From IMG/VR virus record IMGVR_UViG_3300045284_000044, positions 1-59,545 of that record: 59,545 nucleotides of DNA; one strand, 5' to 3'. Below are positions 1 to 59,545 of the stretch, in pieces. The DNA comes from a virus. Taxonomy: Duplodnaviria > Caudoviricetes. Both the position numbers and the translations under genes were made by a program. The notes beneath the pieces are model-generated. The model searched no databases and was not told where the DNA came from. It saw only the letters and a program-made list of their open reading frames with translations. The first letter of the stretch is position 1. Every line of letters begins with the position of its first letter.

Positions 1-44
1 GCACCGGGGGCTAGCAAGCACAGCTAGCCCCCCACGGTGTCTAC
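1..44 (+). repeat. G.G-mismatch hairpin A, completed across the circular join (5' arm starts at 59532)
   Basis: GTAGATA-G-CACC-GGGGGCTAGC loop AAGCACA GCTAGCCCCC-CACG-G-TGTCTAC. Confidence 0.75.
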
Positions 45-96
45 AGCACCAGGGAGGGAACGAATGAGAGAAAAGCCCTGCAAGGTGATGCACAAA

Positions 97-234
97 GTGG
101 GTACCGGCTTGAAGTGTCATATCTACAAGTCCGGTGCTGCCTTTATCAAAGACAAGCACTCAACTCTCTCACACAGGCAATACACTTCCGCGACGGAAGC
201 ACAGGCCCAGCTACGTAAGTCTGGCTGGCGCTAG
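97..234 (+). CDS. Small basic early hypothetical protein
   Basis: Part of ORF 37..234; RBS-like AAGGTGA at 82-88 favours the GTG at 97. Confidence 0.55.
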   Translation: MGTGLKCHIYKSGAAFIKDKHSTLSHRQYTSATEAQAQLRKSGWR

Positions 235-259
235 TACCTGAAAGCCTTACAACTTCAAC

Positions 260-288
260 TTGACAAAGGGGTGAGAACCTGATAGGCT
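260..288 (+). promoter_or_regulatory. Sigma70/SigA-type promoter with extended -10
   Basis: TTGACA(260-265)-17 bp-TAGGCT(283-288), with TG-N before the -10. Confidence 0.8.
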
Positions 289-294
289 ACAGCC

Positions 295-378
295 ATGATA
301 CTTCTGATTACCTCACTCGTCGGGGCTGGAGCTATTGCAGGCATCGCAGCCCCAATCATCAAGCTGCTTAACCCGTAA
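295..378 (+). CDS. 27-aa hydrophobic peptide, probably leaderless
   Basis: MILLITSLVGAGAIAGIAAPIIKLLNP; the ATG sits at the expected +1 of the 260-288 promoter. Confidence 0.6.
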   Translation: MILLITSLVGAGAIAGIAAPIIKLLNP

Positions 379-391
379 GCCCTGCAAGACC

Positions 392-449
392 GTAGCAGCG
401 CCGAGGGTTACTAAGCCGCACAGGGCTTAGTAACCCTCCACGGTGCTAC
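392..449 (+). repeat. G.G-mismatch hairpin B
   Basis: GTAGCA-G-CG...AGGGTTACTAAGCC loop GCACAG GGCTTAGTAACCCT...CG-G-TGCTAC. Confidence 0.8.
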
Positions 450-505
450 CGCATTAGCGGAAACACTAGCACCCGAAAGAGGGGTGATGCACAAAGAGTA
501 ACATT

Positions 506-973
506 GTGACTTCAACCGAAACCCCTGAGAAAGTGGATGATCGCATTACGGATTATCAGGCAGACTTGGCAAAGGCCCGCAATCGCTTCGATACGATTAC
601 GCAATGGCACATTGAAGCAATGATGGCGGTTCCTGAGCTTCCTCTGCCTTACGTGGACGCTAACACGGTTTACTGTAACGTGGAGGACGAGGACGGTAAG
701 ATTGACGTTCCTGCTACCAAGTCCTTGCTTCGCAAGGTGTCCAAGTTCGCGCTTTCAAAGGGATACGAAGTCAAGAAAGATTACTCGTATGACTTCAGTG
801 TCAAGGTGATTCTGAAGGACGAGTATCCGCGCATTAGCGTTAGCTACAGCGTTGATCGCGCAGCGGTCTGCACCAAAAGGGTTGTGGATACAAAGGTTGT
901 TCCTGCTCGCACGATTCCCGAAAAGATCGAAGAGGTCGTGGAGTGGGATTGCGGTACCCTGCTCGGAGACTAA
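506..973 (+). CDS. Early hypothetical protein (155 aa)
   Basis: Long ORF with purine-rich GAAAGAGGGGTGA element upstream. Confidence 0.8.
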   Translation: MTSTETPEKVDDRITDYQADLAKARNRFDTITQWHIEAMMAVPELPLPYVDANTVYCNVEDEDGKIDVPATKSLLRKVSKFALSKGYEVKKDYSYDFSVKVILKDEYPRISVSYSVDRAAVCTKRVVDTKVVPARTIPEKIEEVVEWDCGTLLGD

Positions 974-1042
974 GTAGCACGGACTAGCCTACAGCCATAC
1001 AAGCACAGCACAGCATAGGTAGGCTAGTCTACGGTACTTAGT
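969..1042 (+). repeat. G.G-mismatch hairpin C
   Basis: ACTAAGTA-G-CAC-GGACTAGCCTAC...GTAGGCTAGTCT-ACG-G-TACTTAGT; the loop contains GCACAGCACAG. Confidence 0.8.
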
Positions 1043-1045
1043 ACC

Positions 1046-1188
1046 AGTAGTTGCATAAGACAGAGACAAAGAAAAAGCCGTACCCCTCTAAAGGTGCCCA
1101 AAGGGCATCCGATTGTAACGTGCAATCAAGGCGGGTCTAATACAGAAACGGCCCTGACGAGGATAAGTCTCTGTCTTATGGAGCTACT
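1046..1188 (+). ncRNA. Putative structured RNA cassette D (long closing stem plus multi-hairpin cargo)
   Basis: AGTAGTT-G-CATAAGACAGAGAC ... GTCTCTGTCTTATG-G-AGCTACT; internal stems GCCGT/ACGGC, TGCCC/GGGCA, GATTG/CAATC; no ORF of 60 aa or more. Confidence 0.7.
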
Positions 1189-1193
1189 TACAA

Positions 1194-1432
1194 AGTAGTT
1201 GCATAAGGTAGTAGACGAAATCCACGTGAGAATGGTGGATGCGAGAAGATAGAGGCGGCAAAGGCCTACCGGCATCTATCATAAGCATAGCGTGTAAAAC
1301 CGTGGCCCTGCAAGCTGGTTGAGCACTGATACTTGGAGAGTGCAAAAGAGCCAGTAGGTAAGGCGGTAGCGTAAACCATTCAATAGGCGCCGTGGCCCTG
1401 CAAAGATAAGTCTACTACCTTATGGAGCTACT
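1194..1432 (+). ncRNA. Putative structured RNA cassette E
   Basis: AGTAGTT-G-CATAAGGTAGTAGAC ... GTCTACTACCTTATG-G-AGCTACT; outer arms identical to cassette D, inner arms differ compensatorily; several internal hairpins. Confidence 0.7.
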
Positions 1433-1437
1433 AGCGA

Positions 1438-1466
1438 TTGACAGGTAGTTCTGTACGTGCTAAGCT
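1438..1466 (+). promoter_or_regulatory. Sigma70/SigA-type promoter with extended -10
   Basis: TTGACA(1438-1443)-17 bp-TAAGCT(1461-1466), with TG-N. Confidence 0.8.
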
Positions 1467-1513
1467 TTACCCGTACTTTGACAACCTAGAGCACCGAAAG
1501 GGGGTGAACTTTC

Positions 1514-1825
1514 ATGCCCAGCGAACTGAACCTTTCGGAGATTAAGGATCTGCTCAATTCTGGCAAGAGCCGGTTGTATAAGCCTTGCATCATTGAATTC
1601 GTCAAGTCCGACGAAATCTATGAGGATATGATGCAGAATCCTGCATTCACTGAGAAGAATGCTAGTTCCGTATTCCAGAGCTTCAAGAACAATCTGGATA
1701 AGCTCGTTCGTGACAACCCGGATTGGCCTCACATTGAGGTCAAGAAGGCAGAGAAGGATGGTAAGGAGCTTGTGCTTCTTATCAATATGACTCTGCTTGC
1801 CGGCGCTGTTGCCGACGAGGACTAG
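1514..1825 (+). CDS. Small early protein, paralog of 8623..8922 and probably 6007..6240 (possible DNA-binding)
   Basis: RBS GAAAGGGGGTGA; shares R-x(1-2)-Y...FVKS...V[LF][LV]IN pattern with 8623..8922. Confidence 0.8.
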   Translation: MPSELNLSEIKDLLNSGKSRLYKPCIIEFVKSDEIYEDMMQNPAFTEKNASSVFQSFKNNLDKLVRDNPDWPHIEVKKAEKDGKELVLLINMTLLAGAVADED

Positions 1826-1915
1826 CTCAGTGGAGTCTCCAATCTGCTCACAATAATGGTGGGCGGAGTGTACCTGAGCTTGTCAACAGAAATCAGGACT
1901 CTAGCACAGGTTTAC

Positions 1916-2009
1916 GAGCGAGCGTAAGATGATTTAGGGAATCTGGTGGCACAGCGGGTAACATAGATTACCGGGCCATCAATGTAGGTTCGAATCCTAC
2001 CGCCGCTCA
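1916..2009 (+). ncRNA. tRNA-like RNA 1 (acceptor helix and T-arm; D and anticodon arms replaced by one long irregular hairpin)
   Basis: GAGCG(A)GCG pairs with CGCCGCTC-A; T-arm GTAGG-TTCGAAT-CCTAC. Confidence 0.65.
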
Positions 2010-2017
2010 TTGTAAGT

Positions 2018-2141
2018 CTGTAGTTGCACCCCGCACAGATAGCGTGCTTAGCCTTGCGAGGCGGCCGTTCGTTACCACGGCGGGCAAAGGCCAAGTTACG
2101 TGGTTGCAACCTTTGCTTATCTGTGCGGAGTGGAGCTACAG
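2018..2141 (+). ncRNA. Putative structured RNA cassette F
   Basis: CTGTAGTT-G-CAC-C-CCGCACAGATA ... TATCTGTGCGG-A-GTG-G-AGCTACAG enclosing three hairpins (GCCT/AGGC, GCCGT/ACGGC, GGCAAAGG/CCTTTGCT). Confidence 0.7.
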
Positions 2142-2162
2142 TAGAATGGAGGTGAAAATCAA

Positions 2163-2336
2163 ATGGCATTCACATTGCGGAAGGCTTCCGTTACTCCCAA
2201 GGGAGACTTCATTTGCAAGGACTCGCAGTTCGCAACTAAGCGGGAACTGAAGGCGGAAATCGCGCGATCCTCATACAGCGATATCCGGTGGATTCCCGGT
2301 ACCAGAATCATGGCGATGCGCTTGAAGTCCAGATAA
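2163..2336 (+). CDS. 57-aa basic hypothetical protein (not in the ORF track)
   Basis: Strong RBS GGAGGTG; MAFTLRKASVTPKGDFICKDSQFATKRELKAEIARSS... Confidence 0.7.
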   Translation: MAFTLRKASVTPKGDFICKDSQFATKRELKAEIARSSYSDIRWIPGTRIMAMRLKSR

Positions 2337-2455
2337 TGCACCACTTGACTGGACTAGCATTGATGCATTACCTCATGCTCGCAATGAAGCAAGGTTACCA
2401 TTGTTGGGCTGAGTATCGCAATCACCGCTATGACTTTTACTGCGGTGACAAGTAG
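2336..2455 (+). CDS. 39-aa hypothetical protein
   Basis: TAATG stop/start coupling to the upstream ORF; MHHLTGLALMHYLMLAMKQGYHCWAEYRNHRYDFYCGDK. Confidence 0.5.
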   Translation: MHHLTGLALMHYLMLAMKQGYHCWAEYRNHRYDFYCGDK

Positions 2456-2512
2456 GGCATAGTAAGGGCCACGTTAAAGTACCAGTACCAGCACAAACAA
2501 ACTTAACAACGT

Positions 2513-2669
2513 GCCCCCGCTGCTGAGCTAATCCAGAGAATTAGCGAGAGTGGTAACGCAGAGCAGCTGGACAACGATTGGTACCACGGTATTAACTTTT
2601 CGGCTGGTACCCGAAAAACCAAGACCGCAATCATCCATATCGTCGCAGGTTCGAGTCCTGCCGGGGGCT
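2513..2669 (+). ncRNA. tRNA-like RNA 2 (157-nt expanded cloverleaf)
   Basis: 7-bp acceptor GCCCCCG/CGGGGGC; T-arm GCAGG-TTCGAGT-CCTGC; D-stem GCTG/CAGC with inserted GCTAAT/ATTAGC hairpin and AGTGGTAA; branched domain in place of the anticodon loop. Confidence 0.7.
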
Positions 2670-2993
2670 GCTTACTATCATAACGAGGCGTCAGAATTAG
2701 AGCCACAGGCCACGCCTACCTACTTTAGTGGTCTAGGACTAGATAAGAACCGTGTGAAGTGAGTTTCAGCGCTACGGTCGCCACTTACGAATAGCAACAG
2801 GGTCGAGTATACGGTAATGAGCAAACAGTCCGAGTGAGTATGCGAATCTCGCCTGCTAACCCTAACGCTTTGTGTAAAGTGCTCGCCCAGGAGGGCGTAA
2901 ACAAAACCGGCTAAAAGTAACCGAGTCGGTCTATAAATCTATAGGGTTACTCAGATGCTAGTATCAGATAAACTAGCTATCCACAATGGTGGC

Positions 2994-3042
2994 AGCCTGT
3001 GCGGTTTAGGCCGATTCCGGAGTTCAACTCTCTGGCAGGCTA
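2994..3042 (+). ncRNA. tRNA-like RNA 3 (49-nt mini-tRNA)
   Basis: Acceptor AGCCTGT/GCAGGCT-A; single hairpin CGGT-TTAG-GCCG; T-arm CGGAG-TTCAACT-CTCTG. Confidence 0.55.
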
Positions 3043-3211
3043 TCGACTACAGAAAAGAGGTCAAAGGTGAAATCGCATCAGGATTTCGCATATGATAGCG
3101 ACAGATATCTTCTGGCCTATCATTTCACTCGGCTGTGGCGCATTAGGCACGTAGCCGTAGCCAGAGATTCCCTGAGGCAAAACATCAGGGCACAACGGAA
3201 GGCAAAGCAAT

Positions 3212-3409
3212 ATGACCAATCTCACTAAAGCTAAAGTAACGTACATCAAGTGCCCAAATGTAACGTGTAAGCGTTACCCTGTAATCGCACAGATTCCAAC
3301 TGCGACGGGTGATCTTTACTGCACAGCTTGCGGTTGCGATCACAGTTCCGGCCTCGATGCTAGGGAGATTCTAGTAAAGATCAAGGCACATCTCAGACTA
3401 GCCGCCTGA
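3212..3409 (+). CDS. Small zinc-ribbon-like protein
   Basis: CPNVTC ... CTAC cysteine pairs. Confidence 0.65.
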   Translation: MTNLTKAKVTYIKCPNVTCKRYPVIAQIPTATGDLYCTACGCDHSSGLDAREILVKIKAHLRLAA

Positions 3410-3431
3410 GTAAACAAAGCGGCTACAAAAC

Positions 3432-3576
3432 TTAGTTCGATAATGGAGCTAATCGGCCACTACATAGTCATACGATTAGGTCGGCCATAGATACGGGTCG
3501 AAAGCCCTATGGGTCTATGCGAACCCTCTGAAAGTCACTGGCATGATAGCGCCGGTTAGCTCCATTATCCAACTAA
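3432..3576 (+). ncRNA. Putative structured RNA cassette G
   Basis: TTAGTT-C-GATAATGGAGCTAATCGGC ... GCCGGTTAGCTCCATTATC-C-AACTAA (about 25 bp, one C.C mismatch) enclosing nested stems with a GAAA loop. Confidence 0.7.
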
Positions 3577-3586
3577 AGGGGTTCAC

Positions 3587-3748
3587 GTGAATTTAGTATT
3601 GAAGTTGGACGATAATGTTGTGTACGCTGTGCTTGCTGCGATTGCATTTATCACAGTAACTATAGCGACGTACAAGACCCTGACGTTTAGGGATTACGGT
3701 ACGCAGCCGCAACAGCACGAACAGCCGGGTGATACCTGGCACAAGTAA
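3587..3748 (+). CDS. 53-aa single-pass membrane protein (not in the ORF track)
   Basis: RBS AAAGGGG, GTG start; hydrophobic stretch VVYAVLAAIAFITVTIA. Confidence 0.55.
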   Translation: MNLVLKLDDNVVYAVLAAIAFITVTIATYKTLTFRDYGTQPQQHEQPGDTWHK

Positions 3749-3759
3749 AGGGAAAGGAG

Positions 3760-4143
3760 GTGATTACTATCAGCCTCAAGAGGGGGATACCCCATGACAT
3801 CACAAAACTTGGTGAATGGTGTCCGGTATGTGGACAACTTACCGACGAACATACGACCGCAAAATTGCGCGACATTTATGACAGACTCAGAGACGGTCGT
3901 AGCACCTATGAAGCACTAGTCTTTACGTCTGATTGGCTGCAAGAAAACATTCATGACGAAGAAGATGAAGAATCGGTAATGCTTGCAATGGAACGTGACA
4001 TGGCATATCGCGGTCTTTGTACCGGCTGTGCGCGTCCTGACCTACGTAACATTAAGCCCTCTGACGTAATGTCAGAAGAAGAAGCCCAAGATCTACATGA
4101 AATGTGGGCAGAACAAGCAGCCGAGCGTAGAGCAGGTTGTTAG
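3760..4143 (+). CDS. Acidic Cys-containing hypothetical protein
   Basis: RBS GGGAAAGGAG; CPVC and CTGC motifs. Confidence 0.75.
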   Translation: MITISLKRGIPHDITKLGEWCPVCGQLTDEHTTAKLRDIYDRLRDGRSTYEALVFTSDWLQENIHDEEDEESVMLAMERDMAYRGLCTGCARPDLRNIKPSDVMSEEEAQDLHEMWAEQAAERRAGC

Positions 4144-4212
4144 CATCGTGGTTAGGGTGAAGTAGCCCAGTGCAGAGTGGACTAAAGCCCTAATAAATCC
4201 ACTCAAATTTTT

Positions 4213-4283
4213 GGCCCGTTCGTCTAATGGCAGGACGTCGCACTTTCCATGCGATGGCGTGAGTTCGATTCTCACACGGGCTA
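4213..4283 (+). tRNA. tRNA-Glu(TTC), atypical C at position 37
   Basis: Acceptor GGCCCGT/ACGGGCT-A; D-arm GTC..GAC; anticodon arm TCGCA-CTTTCCA-TGCGA; T-arm GTGAG-TTCGATT-CTCAC; no encoded CCA. Confidence 0.85.
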
Positions 4284-4359
4284 TTGCTAACTCGGCTTAA
4301 AACCAGTAAGTATTTCTGGCGCCGACGGATTCTAGATCGTTAGCGAAGGAGGTGATAAA

Positions 4360-4719
4360 ATGAGTGAGTTCGGTTCGGGTGTTGTCGTGTGTCTGGCAAA
4401 GTTCAGTCAGCACTTGGACAATATCCACCGTTTCAAGGAAACGTATACCAGCATTGGCAAGGATGAAACTTCAGTTTTGTATGACGCGATCACAATGGCG
4501 ATGAACGGTGCCTCAGATCACTTCTATGATTTGGATAGGGATAAGGCACCTGAGTCGCTTATCAAGCTTGCCGATCTAACACTTGAAATCGGCCACGGTT
4601 TTCGTGGAGGTGTAGTCTACACACAAGACACAGTTGATGAAATCTTCAAGCTTTGGGAAGAGTCGTGTCTTGCCGTAGACAAAATGCTTGGTGTCGATGG
4701 TGATTGGGGTACGTGGTAG
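4360..4719 (+). CDS. Hypothetical protein
   Basis: RBS AAGGAGGTG, 119 aa. Confidence 0.8.
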   Translation: MSEFGSGVVVCLAKFSQHLDNIHRFKETYTSIGKDETSVLYDAITMAMNGASDHFYDLDRDKAPESLIKLADLTLEIGHGFRGGVVYTQDTVDEIFKLWEESCLAVDKMLGVDGDWGTW

Positions 4720-4734
4720 TAAAGGAGGTGAAAT

Positions 4735-4986
4735 ATGAACACAACCCAAGATGGCAGAGAATGCCTAGACTTTTACAACGATCATAAGGGGCCTTGTGAT
4801 AATGGGCCTGTTATGTATCATCCATCAATCGCTGGAACAGGCACAATGATTCCGCGATGCGAAAAGCACTATCAAATGCTTTTGGATGAGCATGACGAGT
4901 ACAGTAAAGTCATGCCCGATAGTCCAATGGCGCCGGCGTGGTTTGATCCAACAGCCATAGGCGAACATTGGAATGAGGATTACTAA
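4735..4986 (+). CDS. Hypothetical Cys/His protein
   Basis: RBS AAGGAGGTG; C..H..C..RCxxH pattern. Confidence 0.8.
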   Translation: MNTTQDGRECLDFYNDHKGPCDNGPVMYHPSIAGTGTMIPRCEKHYQMLLDEHDEYSKVMPDSPMAPAWFDPTAIGEHWNEDY

Positions 4987-5225
4987 TGGATTACCAAATA
5001 GAGTTTGTCTTTCGTGATCTTACGGAGGATGAAGCAGAAAAGAAAGCTGGAGAAATTCATGATTTTCTTTTCATGTCCGACCCAAACTCAGAGTTCGAAC
5101 AGTTTGTAATGAGGATTCATTTAGATGACGACGGTGATAGTTTTAGGCTAGAGCACGTTTCTCATTGGCCTGAAGATGCCACCGGCCCATTTAATGATAG
5201 AGTATGGGAAGGAGGTGATGACTAA
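4986..5225 (+). CDS. Small acidic hypothetical protein
   Basis: TAATG coupling; D/E-rich. Confidence 0.75.
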   Translation: MDYQIEFVFRDLTEDEAEKKAGEIHDFLFMSDPNSEFEQFVMRIHLDDDGDSFRLEHVSHWPEDATGPFNDRVWEGGDD

Positions 5226-5480
5226 ATGGCAGAACTAAACTACACAGTCAAAGTTAACTCAGGTGATCCAGAAAATGACGCTAAGTATTGTCTAGAACTT
5301 TTCAAGATTTTTTCTGGAGTAACTGAGGGCATCAAGTCTTTTGGCTATACGGATGACGAATGTATTTGCACGTCAGACTTCAAGCCAACAGGATATGATG
5401 ACGATGGTGAAAAGAGATTTGATGCAAACCTCGAAGTACAGCACATAATCGAGGATCATGGCACACGAGAAATCGAATAA
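5226..5480 (+). CDS. Small acidic hypothetical protein
   Basis: RBS GGAGGTG; D/E-rich. Confidence 0.75.
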   Translation: MAELNYTVKVNSGDPENDAKYCLELFKIFSGVTEGIKSFGYTDDECICTSDFKPTGYDDDGEKRFDANLEVQHIIEDHGTREIE

Positions 5481-5784
5481 AAAGAAGCACACTACAATCA
5501 TCCATGGTGTCTTGCTACCAAGATCCATCGAAAAAAGACAACTCAGTTTTCGATGTGACATTACACATCAGAATGATTTGTTCGACGATTTCTACCGCTA
5601 TAACGAGGTATTATTTCCAGAGTTTGAACCACCCAGCATTCTCAACGTGGATGGTTTGATTTACACGCACAGTCCATGGGGAAAAGCAGAATGCTCAATA
5701 GAACTTGCGATTGACATAGCGATTGATAAATATGTCGAACACAACCCAGGCCCTTTCAAACCTAATGTAAAGAGTTGGAGATAG
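5458..5784 (+). CDS. Hypothetical protein
   Basis: ORF tiles the operon; GAGG upstream. Confidence 0.6.
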   Translation: MAHEKSNKKKHTTIIHGVLLPRSIEKRQLSFRCDITHQNDLFDDFYRYNEVLFPEFEPPSILNVDGLIYTHSPWGKAECSIELAIDIAIDKYVEHNPGPFKPNVKSWR

Positions 5785-5791
5785 CACAAGA

Positions 5792-6004
5792 ATGAAGATC
5801 ATAGCATTTGGCGTTTTCGTAGTGGTGTGGATTTCGATTTTGAGCCATATCCATGTATCGAAAAGCCAGTCACATTCAAAACCGCACAGCAGCCATAGCA
5901 CAGGCTACTGTCAGACGTTGTACGACTTGGATGTTCAATCGAATTTGCTTTACGCCGATGATTCATTCAAGCGGGGTGGCGCCTGCTATAACTTTAAGGG
6001 GTAA
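5792..6004 (+). CDS. Small membrane-anchored or secreted protein
   Basis: N-terminal hydrophobic helix; RBS GGAG. Confidence 0.6.
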   Translation: MKIIAFGVFVVVWISILSHIHVSKSQSHSKPHSSHSTGYCQTLYDLDVQSNLLYADDSFKRGGACYNFKG

Positions 6005-6006
6005 CG

Positions 6007-6240
6007 TTGGGAAAAGATTTCAAGCTTGTACCAGTACCTGAACTACCAGATTTCAAAGCTAAGGCAAGGCGATTGATCGACGAGTTTTTAGAGATGGATA
6101 CTCCCTTTGCTGAGATACAAGAAGCGAGCGCAACAGACTTGAGTATGTTACGGGTCTATATAAATAATCGTCGCCATAGAGAAGAATTGCCCGTAACAAT
6201 CAAACAACTTGACGATAAGGCTTTTCTAGTTAGGATCTAA
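6007..6240 (+). CDS. Small protein, distant paralog of 1514..1825 and 8623..8922
   Basis: LIDEFL...AEI...VTIKQLDDKAFLVRI resembles the EFVKS...V..KDDHVFVIN pattern. Confidence 0.65.
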   Translation: MGKDFKLVPVPELPDFKAKARRLIDEFLEMDTPFAEIQEASATDLSMLRVYINNRRHREELPVTIKQLDDKAFLVRI

Positions 6241-6245
6241 AGGCT

Positions 6246-6331
6246 GCCCCGATGGCGAAATTGGTAGACGCGACAGGCTTAAAACTTGTTGTCCTTTACA
6301 GGGCGTGTCGGTTCAAGTCCGACTCGGGGCA
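6246..6331 (+). tRNA. tRNA-Leu(TAA)
   Basis: GCCCCGA/TCGGGGC-A acceptor; anticodon arm ACAGG-CTTAAAA-CTTGT; long variable arm; T-arm GTCGG-TTCAAGT-CCGAC. Confidence 0.95.
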
Positions 6332-6371
6332 TTGGCTGTAATATTTTACAGTCAGCACAGAAAGGTGAACT

Positions 6372-6968
6372 ATGAATGTGAATAATATTTACCCAGGATC
6401 AGAGTACGCCGTATTCCCTAACGGTAAGTCTAGGGGTGGCGGATTTGAACCCGGCGCCATACGAATTCGGGTATACCGAACATTCAAGAAGCCGCCTGAA
6501 TACGGACAGAAGCGTAGCACAGCGTATGTAACTGCAATCCGTCTAACCCGCGATGGTGAAGTTTACCCCGGTGATAACGGAAACATGCGTGAATATCGCG
6601 CTTATGACGTGGCAGACTTCTGGGATGAGTATGAGGATCAACTTCAGCATTACGAAGTTGAAGAAGAAGCACGCCAAGAAAAGCGACGTCTCCAACGTGA
6701 GGAATACGATCGCCAATGGCGTGAAAGACGAGAGCGCGAAGAGCGTGAGCGAATCGAACGCGAACGCCTAAAGCTTGAAAAAAGAGCTAGAGTTGTAGAG
6801 GGTTTACAAAAGCTCGGGTTTACCGAGGATCCAGAGGACGTAATAGCATTTGAAAAAGAAGTCCGGCTAACATTCGATCAGTTCTTGAATTGGCTTAACC
6901 AATTCGAAAAGCAGGACTGTGTTGTTTGCGGCCGTGAAATTACAATAGTTCGACTTCCGGGAGCGTAA
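6372..6968 (+). CDS. Hypothetical protein with E/R-rich charged helix
   Basis: RBS GAAAGGTGA; ERREREERERIERER tract. Confidence 0.8.
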   Translation: MNVNNIYPGSEYAVFPNGKSRGGGFEPGAIRIRVYRTFKKPPEYGQKRSTAYVTAIRLTRDGEVYPGDNGNMREYRAYDVADFWDEYEDQLQHYEVEEEARQEKRRLQREEYDRQWRERREREERERIERERLKLEKRARVVEGLQKLGFTEDPEDVIAFEKEVRLTFDQFLNWLNQFEKQDCVVCGREITIVRLPGA

Positions 6969-6974
6969 ACAATA

Positions 6975-7283
6975 ATGAGCGGATACGAGTTGAAGCGCAA
7001 GCAATTAAGCGCAGATCAAATCGCAAATCTGCTCAAGAGTAAAACTTCGACTGACCAAAAGCACGAACCAAAGGTCAGGCCGTCTTTCACTCTTGAGCAG
7101 TACGAGGCGATGGCTGATGCATATCAGAATGGTAAGACTTCTTTTGATATGCCAGGACTAGGTGAGTATACAGTCACCCTTCAAACTACTAGAAGCGGTG
7201 ATTGGGTAGTCGTTATGCCGGTTAAAGGCCACGTCCCGATGGGATGTTACAATGCAAAAACGTTGGCCGACCGCAGCAAGTAA
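6975..7283 (+). CDS. Hypothetical protein carrying the LSADQIANLL motif
   Basis: RBS GGAG; ORF tiles the operon. Confidence 0.75.
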   Translation: MSGYELKRKQLSADQIANLLKSKTSTDQKHEPKVRPSFTLEQYEAMADAYQNGKTSFDMPGLGEYTVTLQTTRSGDWVVVMPVKGHVPMGCYNAKTLADRSK

Positions 7284-14213: not shown

Positions 14214-15542
14214 ATGTCGTTAGACCTTTCTAGGGCTTTAGTTAAGCCGCCTATTGCTCCCAGCAAGTGGGATATAATTCCCTTGCATACGAGTGATAGA
14301 GGTACATTCAAACAATGTAGACGTAAATGGAACTGGAGTAGTCCCGCAAGGAACAACCTAGTTCCAAGGGCAAGTATTCACGGTATCGTAGAGCCGTTAT
14401 GGTTCGGTACTGGTATTCATTACGCGCTAGAGCGTGGATACAACCCCGAACTTCCCGAGGATTTTGTTGTAGCTTGGGAAACGTGGTTTGATTTACAGTT
14501 GCATGGCGGCCTCGTAACTGAGGCCGAACTGTCTGAATTTGAAGATCGTTCACCTGAGCCAATCCGCGATGATACGTCTGGCCCTGATCGTATTTATAGG
14601 GTCAAAGGGTTGGACGAGATTCAACCGGACTTTGACCCGGATCATTTTGCCGAGGTAAAGGATTTAGGAATCGGCATGATGAAGTTTTACAAAGACTATG
14701 CCCGTGAGCACGATAACTTCTCGGTTATCGCAACCGAGCATACGTTTAGTGTTCCAATCTTAGACGAATCGGGTCAAGCAATCTATATGCTTGATACTCG
14801 AAGGATGCCTGAATCGTGGCTAGACCAATGGGAAAACGATATTCCAGAAAACAAGTATGGCCCATTGGTTAAGCCGGGAGCGGGTGGATATTACAAGCAA
14901 GTCCATGCCCGAGGTCGAATGGACTTAATCATTCAGGATAATGATTCGGGTAGGTACGGACTTAAGGACTACAAAACTGCAAAGACTATAGGTGAGGATT
15001 ACTTTAGGCACATTGAACTTGATGAGCAAGTAACTACTTATGCCTTTGCAGCAGAGCGTGAAGCTGAGGACTTTGATCTGCCTTATCAGGACATTGACTT
15101 CATTGTATATGAGGCAATCCTAAAGGCGTTCCCTCGGCCTCCGACAATCACGACGCGAGGTATGCCTAGTATCAATCGTCAGGAAGAAGCTACCACAGCT
15201 GAGTTGTTCGCTGAGACTATCGACGTATTGGGAATTCGCTTTATCTACGATCACGATACGAAGATGCAAGCGTACTACGCATGGCTGTTGGAATCAGGCG
15301 ATGAGCGATTCGTTAATCGTTATATTGCTAGGCGCAATAAGTATCAAAAGGCTAGTGCGGGCCGGCGTCTGTTTCTTGAAGCACAGGATATGTGTGACCC
15401 AGGCTTGCGAATCTACCCGAATCCAACTAAGGATTATAGTTGCCTTAACTGTGCGTTCCGTGCTCCTTGTATTGCTATGGAGGACGGTAGTGACTGGCAA
15501 TCAATGATTGATGATGGATTCGAGACTAACCATGATCGCTAA
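14214..15542 (+). CDS. PD-(D/E)xK exonuclease, Cas4/AddB-like phage recombination nuclease
   Basis: FKQCRRKW, GTGIHYALE, GRMDLI, DYKT, QVTTY, C-terminal CLNCAFRAPC (four-Cys Fe-S pattern). Confidence 0.85.
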   Translation: MSLDLSRALVKPPIAPSKWDIIPLHTSDRGTFKQCRRKWNWSSPARNNLVPRASIHGIVEPLWFGTGIHYALERGYNPELPEDFVVAWETWFDLQLHGGLVTEAELSEFEDRSPEPIRDDTSGPDRIYRVKGLDEIQPDFDPDHFAEVKDLGIGMMKFYKDYAREHDNFSVIATEHTFSVPILDESGQAIYMLDTRRMPESWLDQWENDIPENKYGPLVKPGAGGYYKQVHARGRMDLIIQDNDSGRYGLKDYKTAKTIGEDYFRHIELDEQVTTYAFAAEREAEDFDLPYQDIDFIVYEAILKAFPRPPTITTRGMPSINRQEEATTAELFAETIDVLGIRFIYDHDTKMQAYYAWLLESGDERFVNRYIARRNKYQKASAGRRLFLEAQDMCDPGLRIYPNPTKDYSCLNCAFRAPCIAMEDGSDWQSMIDDGFETNHDR

Positions 15543-15822: not shown

Positions 15823-16125
15823 ATGACCGTTGATGAGAACGATCTGAATCGTCTTTGCGCAGAAATGAATATGTTGGATGCAAAGCACCCCGATGATACT
15901 CTCGATCGTTGGTTAGACAGAGAGGACATTGATCGTGAGTCGATGAAGATTTACCTGAGTATGTCTTTGTCCACATTTCTTGATGCTTTAACTTCGATGG
16001 AGGACGCAGACTTATCAGACGAAAGTGAACGGCACAAGTTCGCTACATCGTTTGTTACTCAGGTAGGTCAATCGTTTCGTTTGGGATGGGAGGGACACAA
16101 ACAGTATGGCCGTTCAAGAAGTTAA
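15823..16125 (+). CDS. Acidic hypothetical protein
   Basis: RBS GAGGA. Confidence 0.7.
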   Translation: MTVDENDLNRLCAEMNMLDAKHPDDTLDRWLDREDIDRESMKIYLSMSLSTFLDALTSMEDADLSDESERHKFATSFVTQVGQSFRLGWEGHKQYGRSRS

Positions 16126-16894
16126 GATAGCTCCAACGCTAGCTGAACGGTTGGGTGCTGTCCACCCATCGCAGAATGTTCAGTTTATCAAGCAACTTAT
16201 TTACGGAGAACCCGGTGCTGGCAAGACGTTCTTTCTTGGTAGTGCTGGGCAATCTCCGTTAACAAGTCCCGCAATCATTGTGGACATTGAAGGCGGCACT
16301 TTGTCAATCAGGCATATGCCTGGTGTCGAGGTAGTCCCTGTCCGTTCGTTAAAGAAGGCACAGGAAATCATTAACGAGATTGCGATGGACACAAGCGACT
16401 ACTACAAGACGTTCTGCCTAGATAGCATAACAGAGATGCAGAAGCTTGACATGCAGTATATCATGGCAGAGCAGTATAAGAAGAAGCCTGAGACTACTGA
16501 CGTTGATGTTCCGTCGCAGCGTGAGTGGGGTAAGTCAAGTAATCATATGCGTCAGGTTCTACGTCTTGCACGCGACTTACCCATGCACGTTGTAGTCACA
16601 GCATTGGAGGCATCAGATTACGATGAGCAGACCAATCTCAAAAACTACTACCCCTCCATCCCCGGAAAACTCAGAATGGAAATTCCGGGATTTTTTGACA
16701 TCGTGGGCCGACTGGAAGCGAAGGTGGGCAGCGACAAAGCCATCATGCGACAACTTCAAACCGCCAAAACAAACAGAGTCATAGCGAAGGATAGAACTTC
16801 ATGCCTCCCGCCGGTATTGGAACATCCGTCAATACCTTTGATGTGGGAACTGATTGGCATGGACGGTGCAACACCACAAAGCCACGAAAGCTAA
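16106..16894 (+). CDS. Sak4-like (AAA_24-type) ATPase / annealing recombinase
   Basis: LIYGEPGAGKT, DIEGG, LDSITE, AKDR; lies between the nuclease and SSB. Confidence 0.85.
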   Translation: MAVQEVKIAPTLAERLGAVHPSQNVQFIKQLIYGEPGAGKTFFLGSAGQSPLTSPAIIVDIEGGTLSIRHMPGVEVVPVRSLKKAQEIINEIAMDTSDYYKTFCLDSITEMQKLDMQYIMAEQYKKKPETTDVDVPSQREWGKSSNHMRQVLRLARDLPMHVVVTALEASDYDEQTNLKNYYPSIPGKLRMEIPGFFDIVGRLEAKVGSDKAIMRQLQTAKTNRVIAKDRTSCLPPVLEHPSIPLMWELIGMDGATPQSHES

Positions 16895-57082: not shown

Positions 57083-57442
57083 TTACTCCTTAGTGTTGAC
57101 GGGTACCTGTATTTTCTTAAGGAAATCGCGAAACTCGTCGTCATTGGAGACGTTTCTGGGGCCGTACTCTACAATATACTTGGCGGCGGAAAGTCGTACT
57201 GACTCTGATTCCGCTGATTCAGCTAACATTATAATGCTAGCTATTGCCTGTGGTACATGCGGAACGAAACAACTGCGTATGGTACCAAGGTCGTCGTCAC
57301 TATTGTCTAGTGCGTCTTGAGCTAATTCCTCTTGGAGAGCCTTATTATCGAGCTTAAGCTGCGAAACCTCGGCAGCTAGCTTGGCGGCGTAAGAGCTATT
57401 AGCTGCCGAGCCGTCTGATTCACCGTTAGCGTCCATTGCCAT
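57083..57442 (-). CDS. Possible terminase small subunit
   Basis: First gene of the late arm; AIASIIMLAESAESESVRLSAAKYIVE helical motif. Confidence 0.5.
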   Translation of the reverse strand: MAMDANGESDGSAANSSYAAKLAAEVSQLKLDNKALQEELAQDALDNSDDDLGTIRSCFVPHVPQAIASIIMLAESAESESVRLSAAKYIVEYGPRNVSNDDEFRDFLKKIQVPVNTKE

Positions 57443-57698
57443 AGTTTAGCAGGCAGGTGGTGGAGTGGAACATGTAGCGGTATTAGCGGTACTAATTATA
57501 TAACTTTAACTTGAATTTTCATCACCGAGTTTTTGACCTATAAAACCCGTCAGGGCCACTTGACGCGCTACACTTCGTCTTGCAAGTGTAGTTGATAGCC
57601 GATGGCTCGCGCGACGCGCGCGCGTGCCGGAGGCGCACTGTATAGGCTCTTGTGCCGCGTCGCGAACACGCGGGCAACCCTCACCCAACGGAGGCGAC

Positions 57699-58061
57699 AT
57701 GCAACCTTCTAACCCTTCCGAGTGGAACCTACGCTACCTATTGTCGGAGGCTATCCGCAACGGCAGTAAGCTTAGTCTAGACTCGACTGGTCAGATTCTG
57801 GTTCAACTGCCCAACGGTGGATTCCAACTGCTTACTGAGCAATCTCACAATCGCGAGGTTAGCGACGGCAAGCGGCGGGGATACAACGGAAAGCAGCCGC
57901 GCACGTCCGATGGTATCAAGCATACGTGCTACGTCACTACTGCCGACGGCCGCACCTATGACTTCAACCACAAGACTCGCACCAACGCTACCGCCAGGCT
58001 TGATCGTAGTTCGATCATCGGCAAGCTTGACCCGTCCAACGACTACAACCCTGACGCCTAG
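57699..58061 (+). CDS. Early hypothetical protein
   Basis: RBS GGAGG before ATG 57699. Confidence 0.65.
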   Translation: MQPSNPSEWNLRYLLSEAIRNGSKLSLDSTGQILVQLPNGGFQLLTEQSHNREVSDGKRRGYNGKQPRTSDGIKHTCYVTTADGRTYDFNHKTRTNATARLDRSSIIGKLDPSNDYNPDA

Positions 58062-58075
58062 GCGTCAGGGTTGTA
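58044..58075. repeat. Perfect 32-bp palindrome with no spacer
   Basis: TACAACCCTGACGCCTAGGCGTCAGGGTTGTA equals its own reverse complement. Confidence 0.95.
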
Positions 58076-58138
58076 CTACCCTCCGAGTCACATAGACTAT
58101 CCGCGAGTAGTGGTACTCACTACTGACGGATGTTCTAC

Positions 58139-58167
58139 TTGACAGTAAGTATAGCATCAGCTATGAT
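58139..58167 (+). promoter_or_regulatory. Sigma70/SigA-type promoter
   Basis: TTGACA(58139-58144)-17 bp-TATGAT(58162-58167). Confidence 0.8.
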
Positions 58168-58193
58168 TTAGCTAATCAAGCGAAAGGATCGAA

Positions 58194-58394
58194 ATGCAAA
58201 GCAAGTACGATCCTGCATTTACCGCAGCACTTGCTCAGAGCAAGTCAAAGAATCCTGACGAAGCTCTGACTGGTCACCGGGAATGCAATCGGATTCGGCG
58301 CGAGGTGGGTATCACGGTCTACATCAAAGAGCGCCGGCTGGACATGCGCGAGCACCAAGAGTACCAAGAGTTGTTCCTAGCTCCAATCGGCTAG
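58194..58394 (+). CDS. Early hypothetical protein
   Basis: RBS GAAAGGA; downstream of a promoter. Confidence 0.75.
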   Translation: MQSKYDPAFTAALAQSKSKNPDEALTGHRECNRIRREVGITVYIKERRLDMREHQEYQELFLAPIG

Positions 58395-58497
58395 GCAGTA
58401 ATGCACAGCACAGAGTTTATCTGGGCATGGATAGGATTCTGGACACCAATCTGTCTAGCAATCGGTATCTACGCCTACATAGGTAGCAGCAAGCGTA

Positions 58498-58556
58498 GGT
58501 AGTAGCACTGAGCACAGTCAGCAAGCATTATCGCTACTGTGCTCTACGGTACTACT
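58498..58556 (+). repeat. G.G-mismatch hairpin I
   Basis: GGTAGTA-G-CACT-GAGCACAGT...ACTGTGCTC-TACG-G-TACTACT. Confidence 0.8.
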
Positions 58557-58594
58557 GTCCGAAACGGTCACCTATGACACTAAACTAGGGTGAG

Positions 58595-58639
58595 ACTACC
58601 GCGTTAGCCCGACCGCGTGGTAGTGAAAGCAGGTCGGGC
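58595..58639 (+). ncRNA. Predicted H-type pseudoknot in a 5' leader
   Basis: Stem 1 ACTACCGCG/CGTGGTAGT interleaved with stem 2 GCCCGACC/GGTCGGGC. Confidence 0.6.
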
Positions 58640-58665
58640 ACTACTACATAGGAGAGTGACTTCAA

Positions 58666-58947
58666 GTGGAGTATCTGTCACCTGAACTCATTACTTCGCT
58701 TATCGCCGAATCGGACGCTCGCGCGGCTAGCAAGGTAAAGTCGCGCAACCGCAATAAGAACATGTTTTGCATTGACGGTACTATCTACAACGGAAAGCCG
58801 TCAAGCGAGATTGCGGGTAGGTTTGAGTCAAGAGTCGGCAGTAAGCGTCGTAGTAGGAAGGGTCGCACCGTAACCCTTCCTAACGGATTCGCGCACTACG
58901 GTAGCTATAGCAGCCCATCTGCTAGCTACTACCGCGTTACACAGTAA
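58666..58947 (+). CDS. Basic early protein, starts MEYLSPELITSLI
   Basis: RBS AGGAG. Confidence 0.7.
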   Translation: MEYLSPELITSLIAESDARAASKVKSRNRNKNMFCIDGTIYNGKPSSEIAGRFESRVGSKRRSRKGRTVTLPNGFAHYGSYSSPSASYYRVTQ

Positions 58948-59272
58948 TAACCGTAACAAGCAGGAGTAGCATGGAATGGTTGACAATTGTTGACCATTCT
59001 ACGGTATTCCTGACCAATACAAAAGGTATACCGGGCATTAAAAGACAGATTGTCTTTTGTTCTCGGCTAATAGTAAGCTAGGAAAGCTAGGAGTAGGAAT
59101 CAGGAAGCCCCAATATACCGTGCTCTGAACCTGGGGTTTGGTATATAGTATAGTATATATATTCCTATATATATTATACTCTTAAGTATCATAGATAAGT
59201 TAGTGTCCACTACGCCTTTTAAGTGCGAACAAAAGTCAAGCCGGGCCGAATCGCTTTTAGTGACCTTCTGAC

Positions 59273-59301
59273 TTGACAAATCGGCATAGGCGTGGTACGA
59301 T
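59273..59301 (+). promoter_or_regulatory. Sigma70/SigA-type promoter with extended -10
   Basis: TTGACA(59273-59278)-17 bp-TACGAT(59296-59301), with TG-N. Confidence 0.8.
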
Positions 59302-59331
59302 GCCCCTAACACTACGAAGGGGGGTGAGTAA

Positions 59332-59535
59332 ATGGCATACGTAGATCCTAGCTTCAAGACAAAAAAGGCCCTCAAAGAGGCCGTAGCACAGGGGGAAGAG
59401 GTAACAGTCTTTAGTCCTGGGCCTTTTGGAGTAGCACAGAATGGCCAAGTGGCAGTTGAAGGCCCTAACTACCAGATGCACACTTGGTACGCACAGGTAA
59501 CGGTAGAGAACGGCAGGGTACTAAAGGTGAAGTAG
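59332..59535 (+). CDS. Small early hypothetical protein
   Basis: RBS GAAGGGGGGTGA; downstream of a promoter. Confidence 0.8.
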   Translation: MAYVDPSFKTKKALKEAVAQGEEVTVFSPGPFGVAQNGQVAVEGPNYQMHTWYAQVTVENGRVLKVK

Positions 59536-59545
59536 ATAGCACCGG

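Follow-up and report, generated by a model that had tools for sequence, protein, structure and literature searches.

The window analyzed here is the whole of IMG/VR record IMGVR_UViG_3300045284_000044 (59,545 bases, rated complete and classed as linear), and the subject is a family of nine related stems in its early region. PHROG protein-family matches identified the record as a tailed phage, a siphovirus with a long tape-measure protein, and the sequencing runs containing its DNA are soil metagenomes, with no RNA run among those listed for 1–4400. Genes for helicase, exonuclease, primase and family A DNA polymerase lie on the + strand at approximately 10–24 kilobases (kb), and those for terminase, portal, protease, major head and tape-measure proteins lie on the − strand (PHROG matches in both cases). 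Small + strand open reading frames (ORFs) run from approximately 58.1 kb over the record ends up to approximately 10 kb, and all nine stems lie on the + strand among these early ORFs.

Five of the stems are short (S0–S4) and stand at or after ORF ends, and four are long (L1–L4) and close structured RNAs of 124–239 nucleotides (nt). Eight carry a G.G mismatch and one a C.C mismatch. With helix lengths in base pairs (bp), the members are:

59532..59545, + strand: 5' arm of short stem S0, with the stop codon TAG (59533–59535) of ORF 59332–59535 in the basal helix
1..44, + strand: upper helix, loop and 3' arm of S0 (7 bp, G.G, C-G, 3x3 loop, 10 bp)
392..449, + strand: short stem S1 (6 bp, G.G, C-G, G-C, 2x2 loop, 15 bp), 13 nt past the stop of the 27-codon ORF 295–378
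969..1042, + strand: short stem S2 (8 bp, G.G, C-G, loop, 12 bp), with the stop of ORF 506–973 in the basal helix
58498..58556, + strand: short stem S3 (7-bp basal helix, G.G, C-G, 3x3 loop, upper helix), with the stop of the 33-codon ORF 58401–58502 in the basal helix
58961..59012, + strand: short stem S4, an additional member (8 bp, G.G, C-G, A.C, 13-bp helix with four G-U pairs), 14 nt past the stop of ORF 58666–58947
1046..1188, + strand: L1, structured element of 143 nt (closing stem 7 bp, G.G, 14 bp)
1194..1432, + strand: L2, structured RNA of 239 nt (closing stem 7 bp, G.G, 15 bp)
2018..2141, + strand: L3, structured element of 124 nt (closing stem 8 bp, G.G, 3 bp, C.A, 11 bp), directly after a tRNA-like fold
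3431..3577, + strand: L4, structured element of 147 nt (closing stem 6–7 bp, C.C, 19 bp), followed by a ribosome-binding site and a GTG start at 3587

Anatomy and significance of the stems

Alignment of the modules showed a basal helix of 6–8 bp, then G.G, then a C-G pair in eight of eight G.G elements, with an A after the C in seven of the eight. The helices span 21–27 steps, and are broken either by the G.G alone or by the G.G and a symmetric loop of 1–3 nt. On the 5' side the short stems read GC[AG]C (GCAT in S4) and on the 3' side YACGG, and the 3' side of the long stems reads UAUGG or AGUGG. L4 has the same build, with C.C followed by G-C. The seven stems listed in the initial annotation are present where it had placed them and fold as it described, and its rule of a 6–8-bp helix, G.G and C-G was borne out and extended by an eighth G.G member, S4. 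The arm letters that it had read as common to the short stems (G-C[AG]C and ACG-G) also held, apart from S4, and the C.C that it had noted in a "cassette G" is real and belongs to L4. It had further placed the short stems at or just after stop codons; three overlap a stop within the basal helix (S0, S2 and S3), and two begin within 14 nt of one (13–14 nt downstream, S1 and S4). S0 fits the family only if one copy of a 7-base terminal repeat is removed, and with a plain join of the record ends its best fold is a different one.

Folds were scored against dinucleotide shuffles. Among the short stems, z-scores were −9.05 for S1 (0 of 200 shuffles as good), −4.51 for S2 (0 of 200) and −3.73 for S3 (1 of 200); among the long ones, they were −7.60 for L1 (0 of 200), −6.24 for L2 (none of its shuffles) and −4.60 for L3 (0 of 200). 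A stem descriptor (outer helix at least 6 bp, G.G, C-G, inner helix at least 9 bp, span up to 300 nt) matched seven times on the + strand of the window and once on the − strand, with a mean of 0.33 per strand and a maximum of 2 in dinucleotide shuffles (n = 60). The + strand matches are the six stems previously listed inside the window and S4, all within approximately 3.2 kb over the record ends. As background, the descriptor produced 27 matches in 729,730 nt, both strands, of 80 unrelated phage loci, or approximately one per 54 kb of strand. The stem family is not a chance product, and it is confined to the early region.

Across the four short stems inside the window, five of nine basal pairs are changed on both sides and still pair; the G.G column is unpaired in all four, the C-G pair is kept in all four, and the first two pairs of the upper helix are invariant. 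The family, its strand and positions, and this covariation are established. Predicted stability on the + and − strands, respectively, was −62.4 versus −53.9 kcal/mol for L1, −91.0 versus −75.7 for L2 and −28.9 versus −17.9 for S4. In the long stems and S4, G-U pairs account for the clearly higher stability of the + strand, since they become A.C mismatches on the other.

Structured RNAs and relatives

L1–L4 are multi-branched folds. Nothing at the stems or at L1–L4 reached an Rfam gathering cut-off, even when small regions were searched at E values up to 10, and only three tRNAs passed the cut-off in the whole window. L2 has an orthologue in the related record G004 (L132 5680–5930) at 62.5% identity over 240 nt, and in the two-sequence alignment 13 of 51 predicted pairs are compensatory, making L2 a conserved structured RNA. 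L1 and L2 have identical 14-nt words on both arms, and the words at the stem junction of L1 are common to L2 and to a second element in G004; apart from this pair, the interiors of the long elements are unrelated to each other. The L2 model R1, run on 50 of 80 polymerase (PolA)-related records, matched one, which was G004, itself a training sequence, and the conserved L2 word pattern was found in IMG/VR in G004 only. An 11-base word in L2 produced a below-threshold JUMPstart/ops match (15.7 bits against a cut-off of 35, E = 1). The 9-mer GCCCTGCAA has exactly four copies (75, 379, 1305 and 1395), all on the + strand inside 1.4 kb, of which two lie within L2, one just ahead of S1 and one within ORF 64–234.

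tRNAs and tRNA-like folds, another kind of processing signal, occupy the same intergenic slots as the stems. One such fold stands immediately upstream of L3:

1916..2008, + strand: tRNA-like fold in which a T-arm is combined with a long acceptor stem (below threshold, at 17.8 bits for the tRNA-Sec model, whose cut-off is 47)

Further tRNA-like folds missed by tRNA finders are seen in 2513–2672 and 2994–3041; they include a second T-arm-like word, at 2647–2663, with a possible 7-bp acceptor stem, and, separately, a weak mascRNA-like match. The stretch 2455–3200 seems to be largely non-coding. By eye, some words in L1 resemble a hammerhead, part of L4 resembles 5S, and closing stems resemble Y RNA; these likenesses were dropped, having no Rfam match.

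Close relatives were sought by several routes. The GenBank phage collection contained no match to 1–2400, none of four pattern matches in a helicase search was a relative, and a metagenome scan with ORF 1514–1825 returned one distant relative at 31% identity. Relatives found through the polymerase, at 51–55% and approximately 40% identity, were analyzed as whole records. A PolA scan of prokaryote genomes, run as a host search, returned five weak matches in unrelated metagenome-assembled genomes.

The early regions of these relatives contain + strand stems of approximately 20–27 bp that close short loops or elements of 100–270 nt, and whose base sequences are unlike those of the window, yet alike within one genome. 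Their mismatches differ as well: the clear stems of G004 have C.A, C.A, A.C, G.G and two U.U, and those of G005 and G008 have mostly A.C. A general single-mismatch descriptor run on four relatives showed G.G in 11 of 67 + strand matches and 6 of 62 − strand matches, and G.G is not specially favored in them. In the L2 orthologue of G004, a U-A pair stands at the position of the G.G of the window, with an A.C mismatch 4 bp further in, and the inner part of the closing helix is conserved, while its outer 8–10 bp follow the pattern of G004 itself. The distant relative G003 has two G.G stems, one of them directly behind an early promoter. What recurs across relatives is a single irregularity approximately 6–9 bp above the base of a two-turn helix, and the base sequence is established as lineage-specific.

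The initial annotation had called the G.G invariant and proposed it as a shared recognition determinant for one nuclease or RNA-binding protein. Invariance did not survive comparison with homologues, since the only orthologue found, L2 of G004, has U-A and the relatives vary; to judge from the alignments, the determinant is invariant only inside this genome and its near variants. Shared recognition is still plausible within the window, where G.G and C-G are kept in eight of eight paralogues while neighboring pairs covary, on the sense strand and between cistrons. The G.G appears to be under selection within this lineage, and is not a general feature.

Further searches looked for the stems elsewhere. 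The exact long closing-stem pattern matched 39 stretches in IMG/VR, none of which continues the helix for 14–15 bp, and these were taken as chance matches. The 67-amino-acid gene that precedes S0 occurs widely, with 163 relatives detected and 80 loci retained; 49 of 78 of its loci have some stable fold near the stop, and a descriptor match within 100 nt after the gene was found at 0 of 80. Two side observations were made in the relatives: a manA RNA (Rfam RF01745, 59.3 bits, over the cut-off) lies in the early region of G003 (L046 5568–5748), and in G004 (L132 2461–2700) two copies of a 16-nt word ending in a −35-like hexamer flank an 84-nt element with a U.U stem.

Cassette borders and DNA-level readings

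Contigs of four soil runs were compared with 1–7000; one run is probably the source of the record, and the others contain parts of it. The variant contigs are short and shallow and the events few, and stems occupy much of the intergenic space. In a 227-nt X3 contig, 1187 is joined to 1438, so that L2 and the 5-nt spacers on each side of it are absent and the 3' end of L1 abuts the promoter-like site at 1438. Two other X3 joints lead from 2864 through eight other letters to 2017, at the 5' base of L3, and from 1898 through 26 letters to 2795. An X3 loose end has an S0-type 3' arm with a different upper helix approximately 13 nt from position 256, with gene 64–234 missing, and X2 loose ends at 64 and 230 show that gene with other flanks. 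In an X4 contig, gene 4360–4719 is replaced by 31 letters (4323 to 4721), away from the family stems. The stretch after a conserved hairpin at approximately 2680–2720 (2695–2880) is replaced in X3 and X4 contigs.

Among the resolved events in 1–7000, three of four have a boundary within approximately 8 nt of a stem base, a count that rests on few events and short contigs. In these contigs the stems coincide with cassette joints, the same short sequences recurring at many cassette borders. Cassette-like exchange at the stems, which the initial annotation had named as a check, is seen as gains, losses and moves at stem bases in the contigs from other samples, in a small number of events.

The main rival to an RNA-processing role, compatible with it, is that the stems are recombination modules of the kind described in T4-like phages as PeSLs. 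The repeats at the stem bases would serve as DNA homology patches for swapping, deleting or inserting early cassettes, acted on by the phage annealing and exonuclease system or by that of the host, with the hairpin incidental or a transcription attenuator. The passages of PMC2839356 and PMC4122927 concerned with PeSLs provide a documented precedent, describing repeated intergenic stem-loop motifs that lie after the stop codon of one small early gene and before the start codon of the next, and flank cassettes that differ between close relatives. Three X3 events at stems (the 1187/1438 loss of L2, the start of L3 at 2017 and the S0-type arm near 256) fit this explanation, as do the identical 14-nt words on the arms of L1 and L2. 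The genome-specific base sequence beside a conserved inner part of L2 in G004 looks like within-genome homogenization. The phage also encodes its own annealing protein and exonuclease. In a Pfam search of 30 early and middle ORFs, matches were limited to a Sak4-like protein (AAA_24), a dNMP kinase and, weakly, DUF294; a PHROGs search of 20 ORFs added a match to the small terminase at 57083–57442, which was weak, and one to the Sak4-like annealing protein. The exonuclease and the Sak4-like single-strand annealing protein, at 14214–15542 and 16106–16894, are of the kind relevant to short-repeat recombination.

The words shared between stems, however, are only 7–14 nt long, and the L2 deletion in X3 is not the product of crossing over between the 14-nt repeats, since it removes five more bases than such a crossover would, with two bases shared at the joint. 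Breakpoints near stems are expected anyway because the intergenic space is largely made of stems, and the fourth event (4323 to 4721 in X4) lies away from them. Homology patches need neither a conserved mismatch nor strand-specific G-U pairs nor compensatory changes; the conserved mismatch and the covariation point instead to a constraint at the RNA level. PeSLs are, moreover, composites of approximately 100 bp in which a strong promoter is combined with a terminator-like stem, whereas most stems here have no fused promoter, and only L2 (the 1438 site) and S4 (a −35-like hexamer in the loop) adjoin promoter-like sequence. The promoter-plus-stem arrangement at 2461–2700 in G004 is nearer to PeSLs than anything in the window. 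We consider a recombination module of this kind unlikely as the function of the family, and the strongest of the competing proposals.

Correia/nemis and ERIC elements occur as many near-identical copies in bacterial chromosomes, with target duplications, and are substrates of RNase III or RNase E. If the elements here were miniature mobile DNA of the MITE, REPIN or Correia type, the closing stems would be terminal inverted repeats mobilized by a transposase in trans, and the RNA hairpins a by-product, possibly still cut by RNase III. The long elements do have inverted ends of approximately 22 bp with a conserved tip, L1, L2 and L3 show the same two left/right differences, and L2 behaves as a discrete insertion or deletion. 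Correia elements are likewise inverted-repeat-closed units of 100–250 bp within transcripts, with stems that nucleases target; in PMC2649163 they are reported to bind, or be cut by, RNase III. Flanking direct repeats of at least 4 nt, the trace of target-site duplication, were found at 0 of 8 elements here, and the interiors of L1–L4 are not copies of each other, being unrelated except between L1 and L2. Compensatory changes mark L2 as a conserved structured RNA, the elements sit in the early region of a phage, and copies elsewhere were not found, the 39 IMG/VR matches lacking the helix continuation of the window. No Y1 transposase or serine recombinase family, and no RNase III family, matched in the complete record (positive controls were found in reference genomes), and tyrosine integrase (PF00589) had 0 matches in it, with a control search matching 14 of 14 genomes. 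A mobile-element origin is very improbable.

The same profile searches bear on the suggestion in the initial annotation that the stems are single-stranded DNA hairpin recombination sites analogous to integron attC, and they confirm its remark that no integrase is visible. As with attC, the hairpins are imperfect and stand at cassette borders, where variants show cassette-like differences. Unlike attC, they have a symmetric mismatch in place of extrahelical bases and RNA-type G-U pairs, which make the long stems more stable on the sense strand and point to RNA. The integron core-site consensus was found at either end of 0 of 8 stems, and the sizes and contents of the cassettes (structured RNAs, promoters) are unsuited to such a system. 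The attC analogy fails and can be given almost no credence, and ordinary recombination at repeated or intergenic sequence explains the cassette exchange better. A reading of the stems as N4-type hairpin promoters is unsupported; no RNA polymerase was recognized among the scanned ORFs, and the 1458-amino-acid ORF matched nothing in PHROGs. A retron reading was considered and dropped, no search aimed at a reverse transcriptase having been made.

The record starts and ends with the same seven bases (1–7 and 59539–59545). Both record ends fall inside S0, exactly where the basal helix gives way to the G of the G.G, and the shared bases equal the 5' half of the conserved loop and two further bases. 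In the probable source run, a contig built independently begins at window position 10, within 10 bases of that point, and the weak small-terminase match lies 2.1 kb from the record end. The record ends may be filled-in cohesive ends, in which case the S0 stem would exist only after circularization. It is a long shot, suggested by the position of these ends, that a site-specific enzyme that nicks or cuts recognizes the module in DNA, in addition to or in place of its recognition in RNA. If the cohesive ends were real, the genome-end motif would recur at eight other cassette borders, nicks could start cassette recombination, and the whole would amount to a nick-driven cassette-shuffling system in a phage early region.

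Predicted punctuation of the early RNA

Scans for promoters and terminators, supplemented by reading the sequence by eye, revealed the following sites on the + strand:

58139..58167, + strand: sigma-70-like promoter (matching the consensus at 11 of 12 positions) that opens the rightward early unit containing S3 and S4
59273..59301, + strand: sigma-70-like promoter (10 of 12, extended −10), preceding ORF 59332–59535 and S0
260..288, + strand: promoter-like site (TTGACA, 17-nt spacer, TAGGCT), read by eye and under the scan threshold
1438..1466, + strand: promoter-like site (TTGACA, 17-nt spacer, TAAGCT), directly after L2, read by eye and under the scan threshold

No + strand intrinsic terminator-like site was found in 1–7000 or 57400–59545, where the listed sites (7 and 4, respectively) are all on the − strand. 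Since the scans found no such sites on the + strand, long read-through early transcripts are expected.

The interpretation that we prefer, tentatively and with slightly less than even confidence, is that the stems are transcribed as punctuation of an early polycistronic RNA, where a nuclease specific for double strands, host RNase III for example, would bind or cut. They would act as cis-acting RNA structures in the sense strand of early polycistronic transcripts, built on one closure module (a 6–8-bp basal helix, G.G and C-G in a helix of 21–27 steps in total) that either stands alone after an ORF, in the five short stems, or closes a small structured RNA, in the four long ones. A double-strand-specific nuclease, most simply host RNase III, would dock on the helix of approximately two turns, and the mismatch or internal loop would restrict or position its cut. 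The cut would leave upstream messages protected by a 3' hairpin, and would release the small RNAs inside the long elements together with adjacent tRNA-like units. The enzyme would be that of the host because the phage encodes no RNase III domain.

This reading is preferred because the anatomy matches that of T7-type intercistronic hairpins and the properties of RNase III substrates fit. In the passages of PMC3867540 on such substrates, the idealized Escherichia coli RNase III substrate is a 22-bp helix, mismatches or loops in a target allow cleavage of one strand only and can leave stabilizing 3' hairpins, and the T7 early precursor contains five RNase III signals of such a kind. The stems here are likewise related hairpins between early cistrons; each has approximately two turns, contains a mismatch or internal loop, is sense-strand specific and lacks a U-tract, and the expected outcome is again separate messages with 3' hairpins. 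In the window, the hairpins lie between early cistrons of a predicted polycistronic transcript, nine of nine on the + strand, and their helices of 21–27 steps are each broken by a loop or mismatch. They differ from the T7 signals in having a single G.G and a small symmetric loop near the base, in also closing four structured RNAs of 124–239 nt, in a lineage-specific base sequence and in coinciding with cassette joints, and cleavage here is only predicted.

Several points weigh against this assignment. Transcription through the stems, their cleavage and the identity of the enzyme are all things that we infer. The loop is conserved in sequence and not in shape alone, and a sequence-specific protein would be no worse a fit than RNase III, whose recognition is chiefly of shape. 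Since relatives change both the base sequence and the mismatch, the G.G is no general requirement of a conserved host enzyme, and breakpoints at the stems are also predicted by a purely DNA-level role in recombination. Finally, the − strand gives S1–S3 a marginally more stable fold, since the A.C/C.A loop that they conserve reads G.U/U.G on that strand. When stability and gene orientation are taken together, the balance favors RNA made from the + strand.

The conserved letters also raise the proposal of a sequence-specific RNA-binding protein that does not cut, such as a basic early protein of the phage acting as antiterminator or translational regulator. Such a protein would recognize the groove that the G.G opens, and would evolve together with the base sequence specific to each genome. 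The conservation in sequence of the G.G, the next C-G and the loop letters suggests such a factor, and base sequences that differ between related genomes are what co-evolution with a phage factor predicts; the G003 stem directly behind an early promoter is also in keeping with it. A structural precedent is given by stem IIB of the Rev response element of HIV-1, where, in the passages of PMC4488727 on this stem, a G.G beside standard pairs in an internal loop widens the major groove and forms a protein-recognition site; virus and protein are unrelated to those here, and the precedent concerns only what a conserved G.G can do. The product of ORF 58666–58947, which lies between S3 and S4, is a small basic protein containing runs rich in arginine and lysine, and its link to the stems is proximity only. 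No RNA-binding domain was found in the 30 ORFs scanned with Pfam or the 20 scanned with PHROGs, no + strand terminators were found that would need antitermination, and a set of nine, with several directly adjoining (S2, L1 and L2), would be unusual for nut-like sites. Binding without cleavage appears improbable, less likely than recombination modules of the PeSL kind.

With nuclease processing as its predicted function, the family would be a new form of an established kind of phage signal; the stems themselves are real. Hairpin families punctuating early transcripts are already known from T7 and a few other phages, and the closure module bears on how early expression is organized in uncultured phages. 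The new form consists in one compact module used both after protein genes and around small structured RNAs. If cleavage takes place, the module would be a simple and portable insulator and processing signal, and one sequence would serve both as an RNA-processing signal and as a seam of the genome mosaic. No catalogued family includes the RNAs inside the long elements, of which the 239-nt L2, with its clear covariation, is the foremost. As by-products, the uncatalogued structured RNAs, the cassette seams and the possible genome ends inside a stem are the most valuable.

Three further features of the early region were recorded. In the leader of ORF 58666–58947 (58590–58650), two interleaved helices could be read by eye as a possible H-type pseudoknot. 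An A+T-rich stretch at 59140–59200 with short TATA-type repeats lies between S4 and the 59273 promoter, and may be an origin or a binding region. GCACAG is the top hexamer on the sense strand, with 59 copies on the + strand and 35 on the − strand (approximately 14.5 expected per strand), and shows no enrichment in five of six related records checked. It tracks gene direction, occurs in all three reading frames and outside ORFs, and is located in the loops or upper stems of four of the five short stems.

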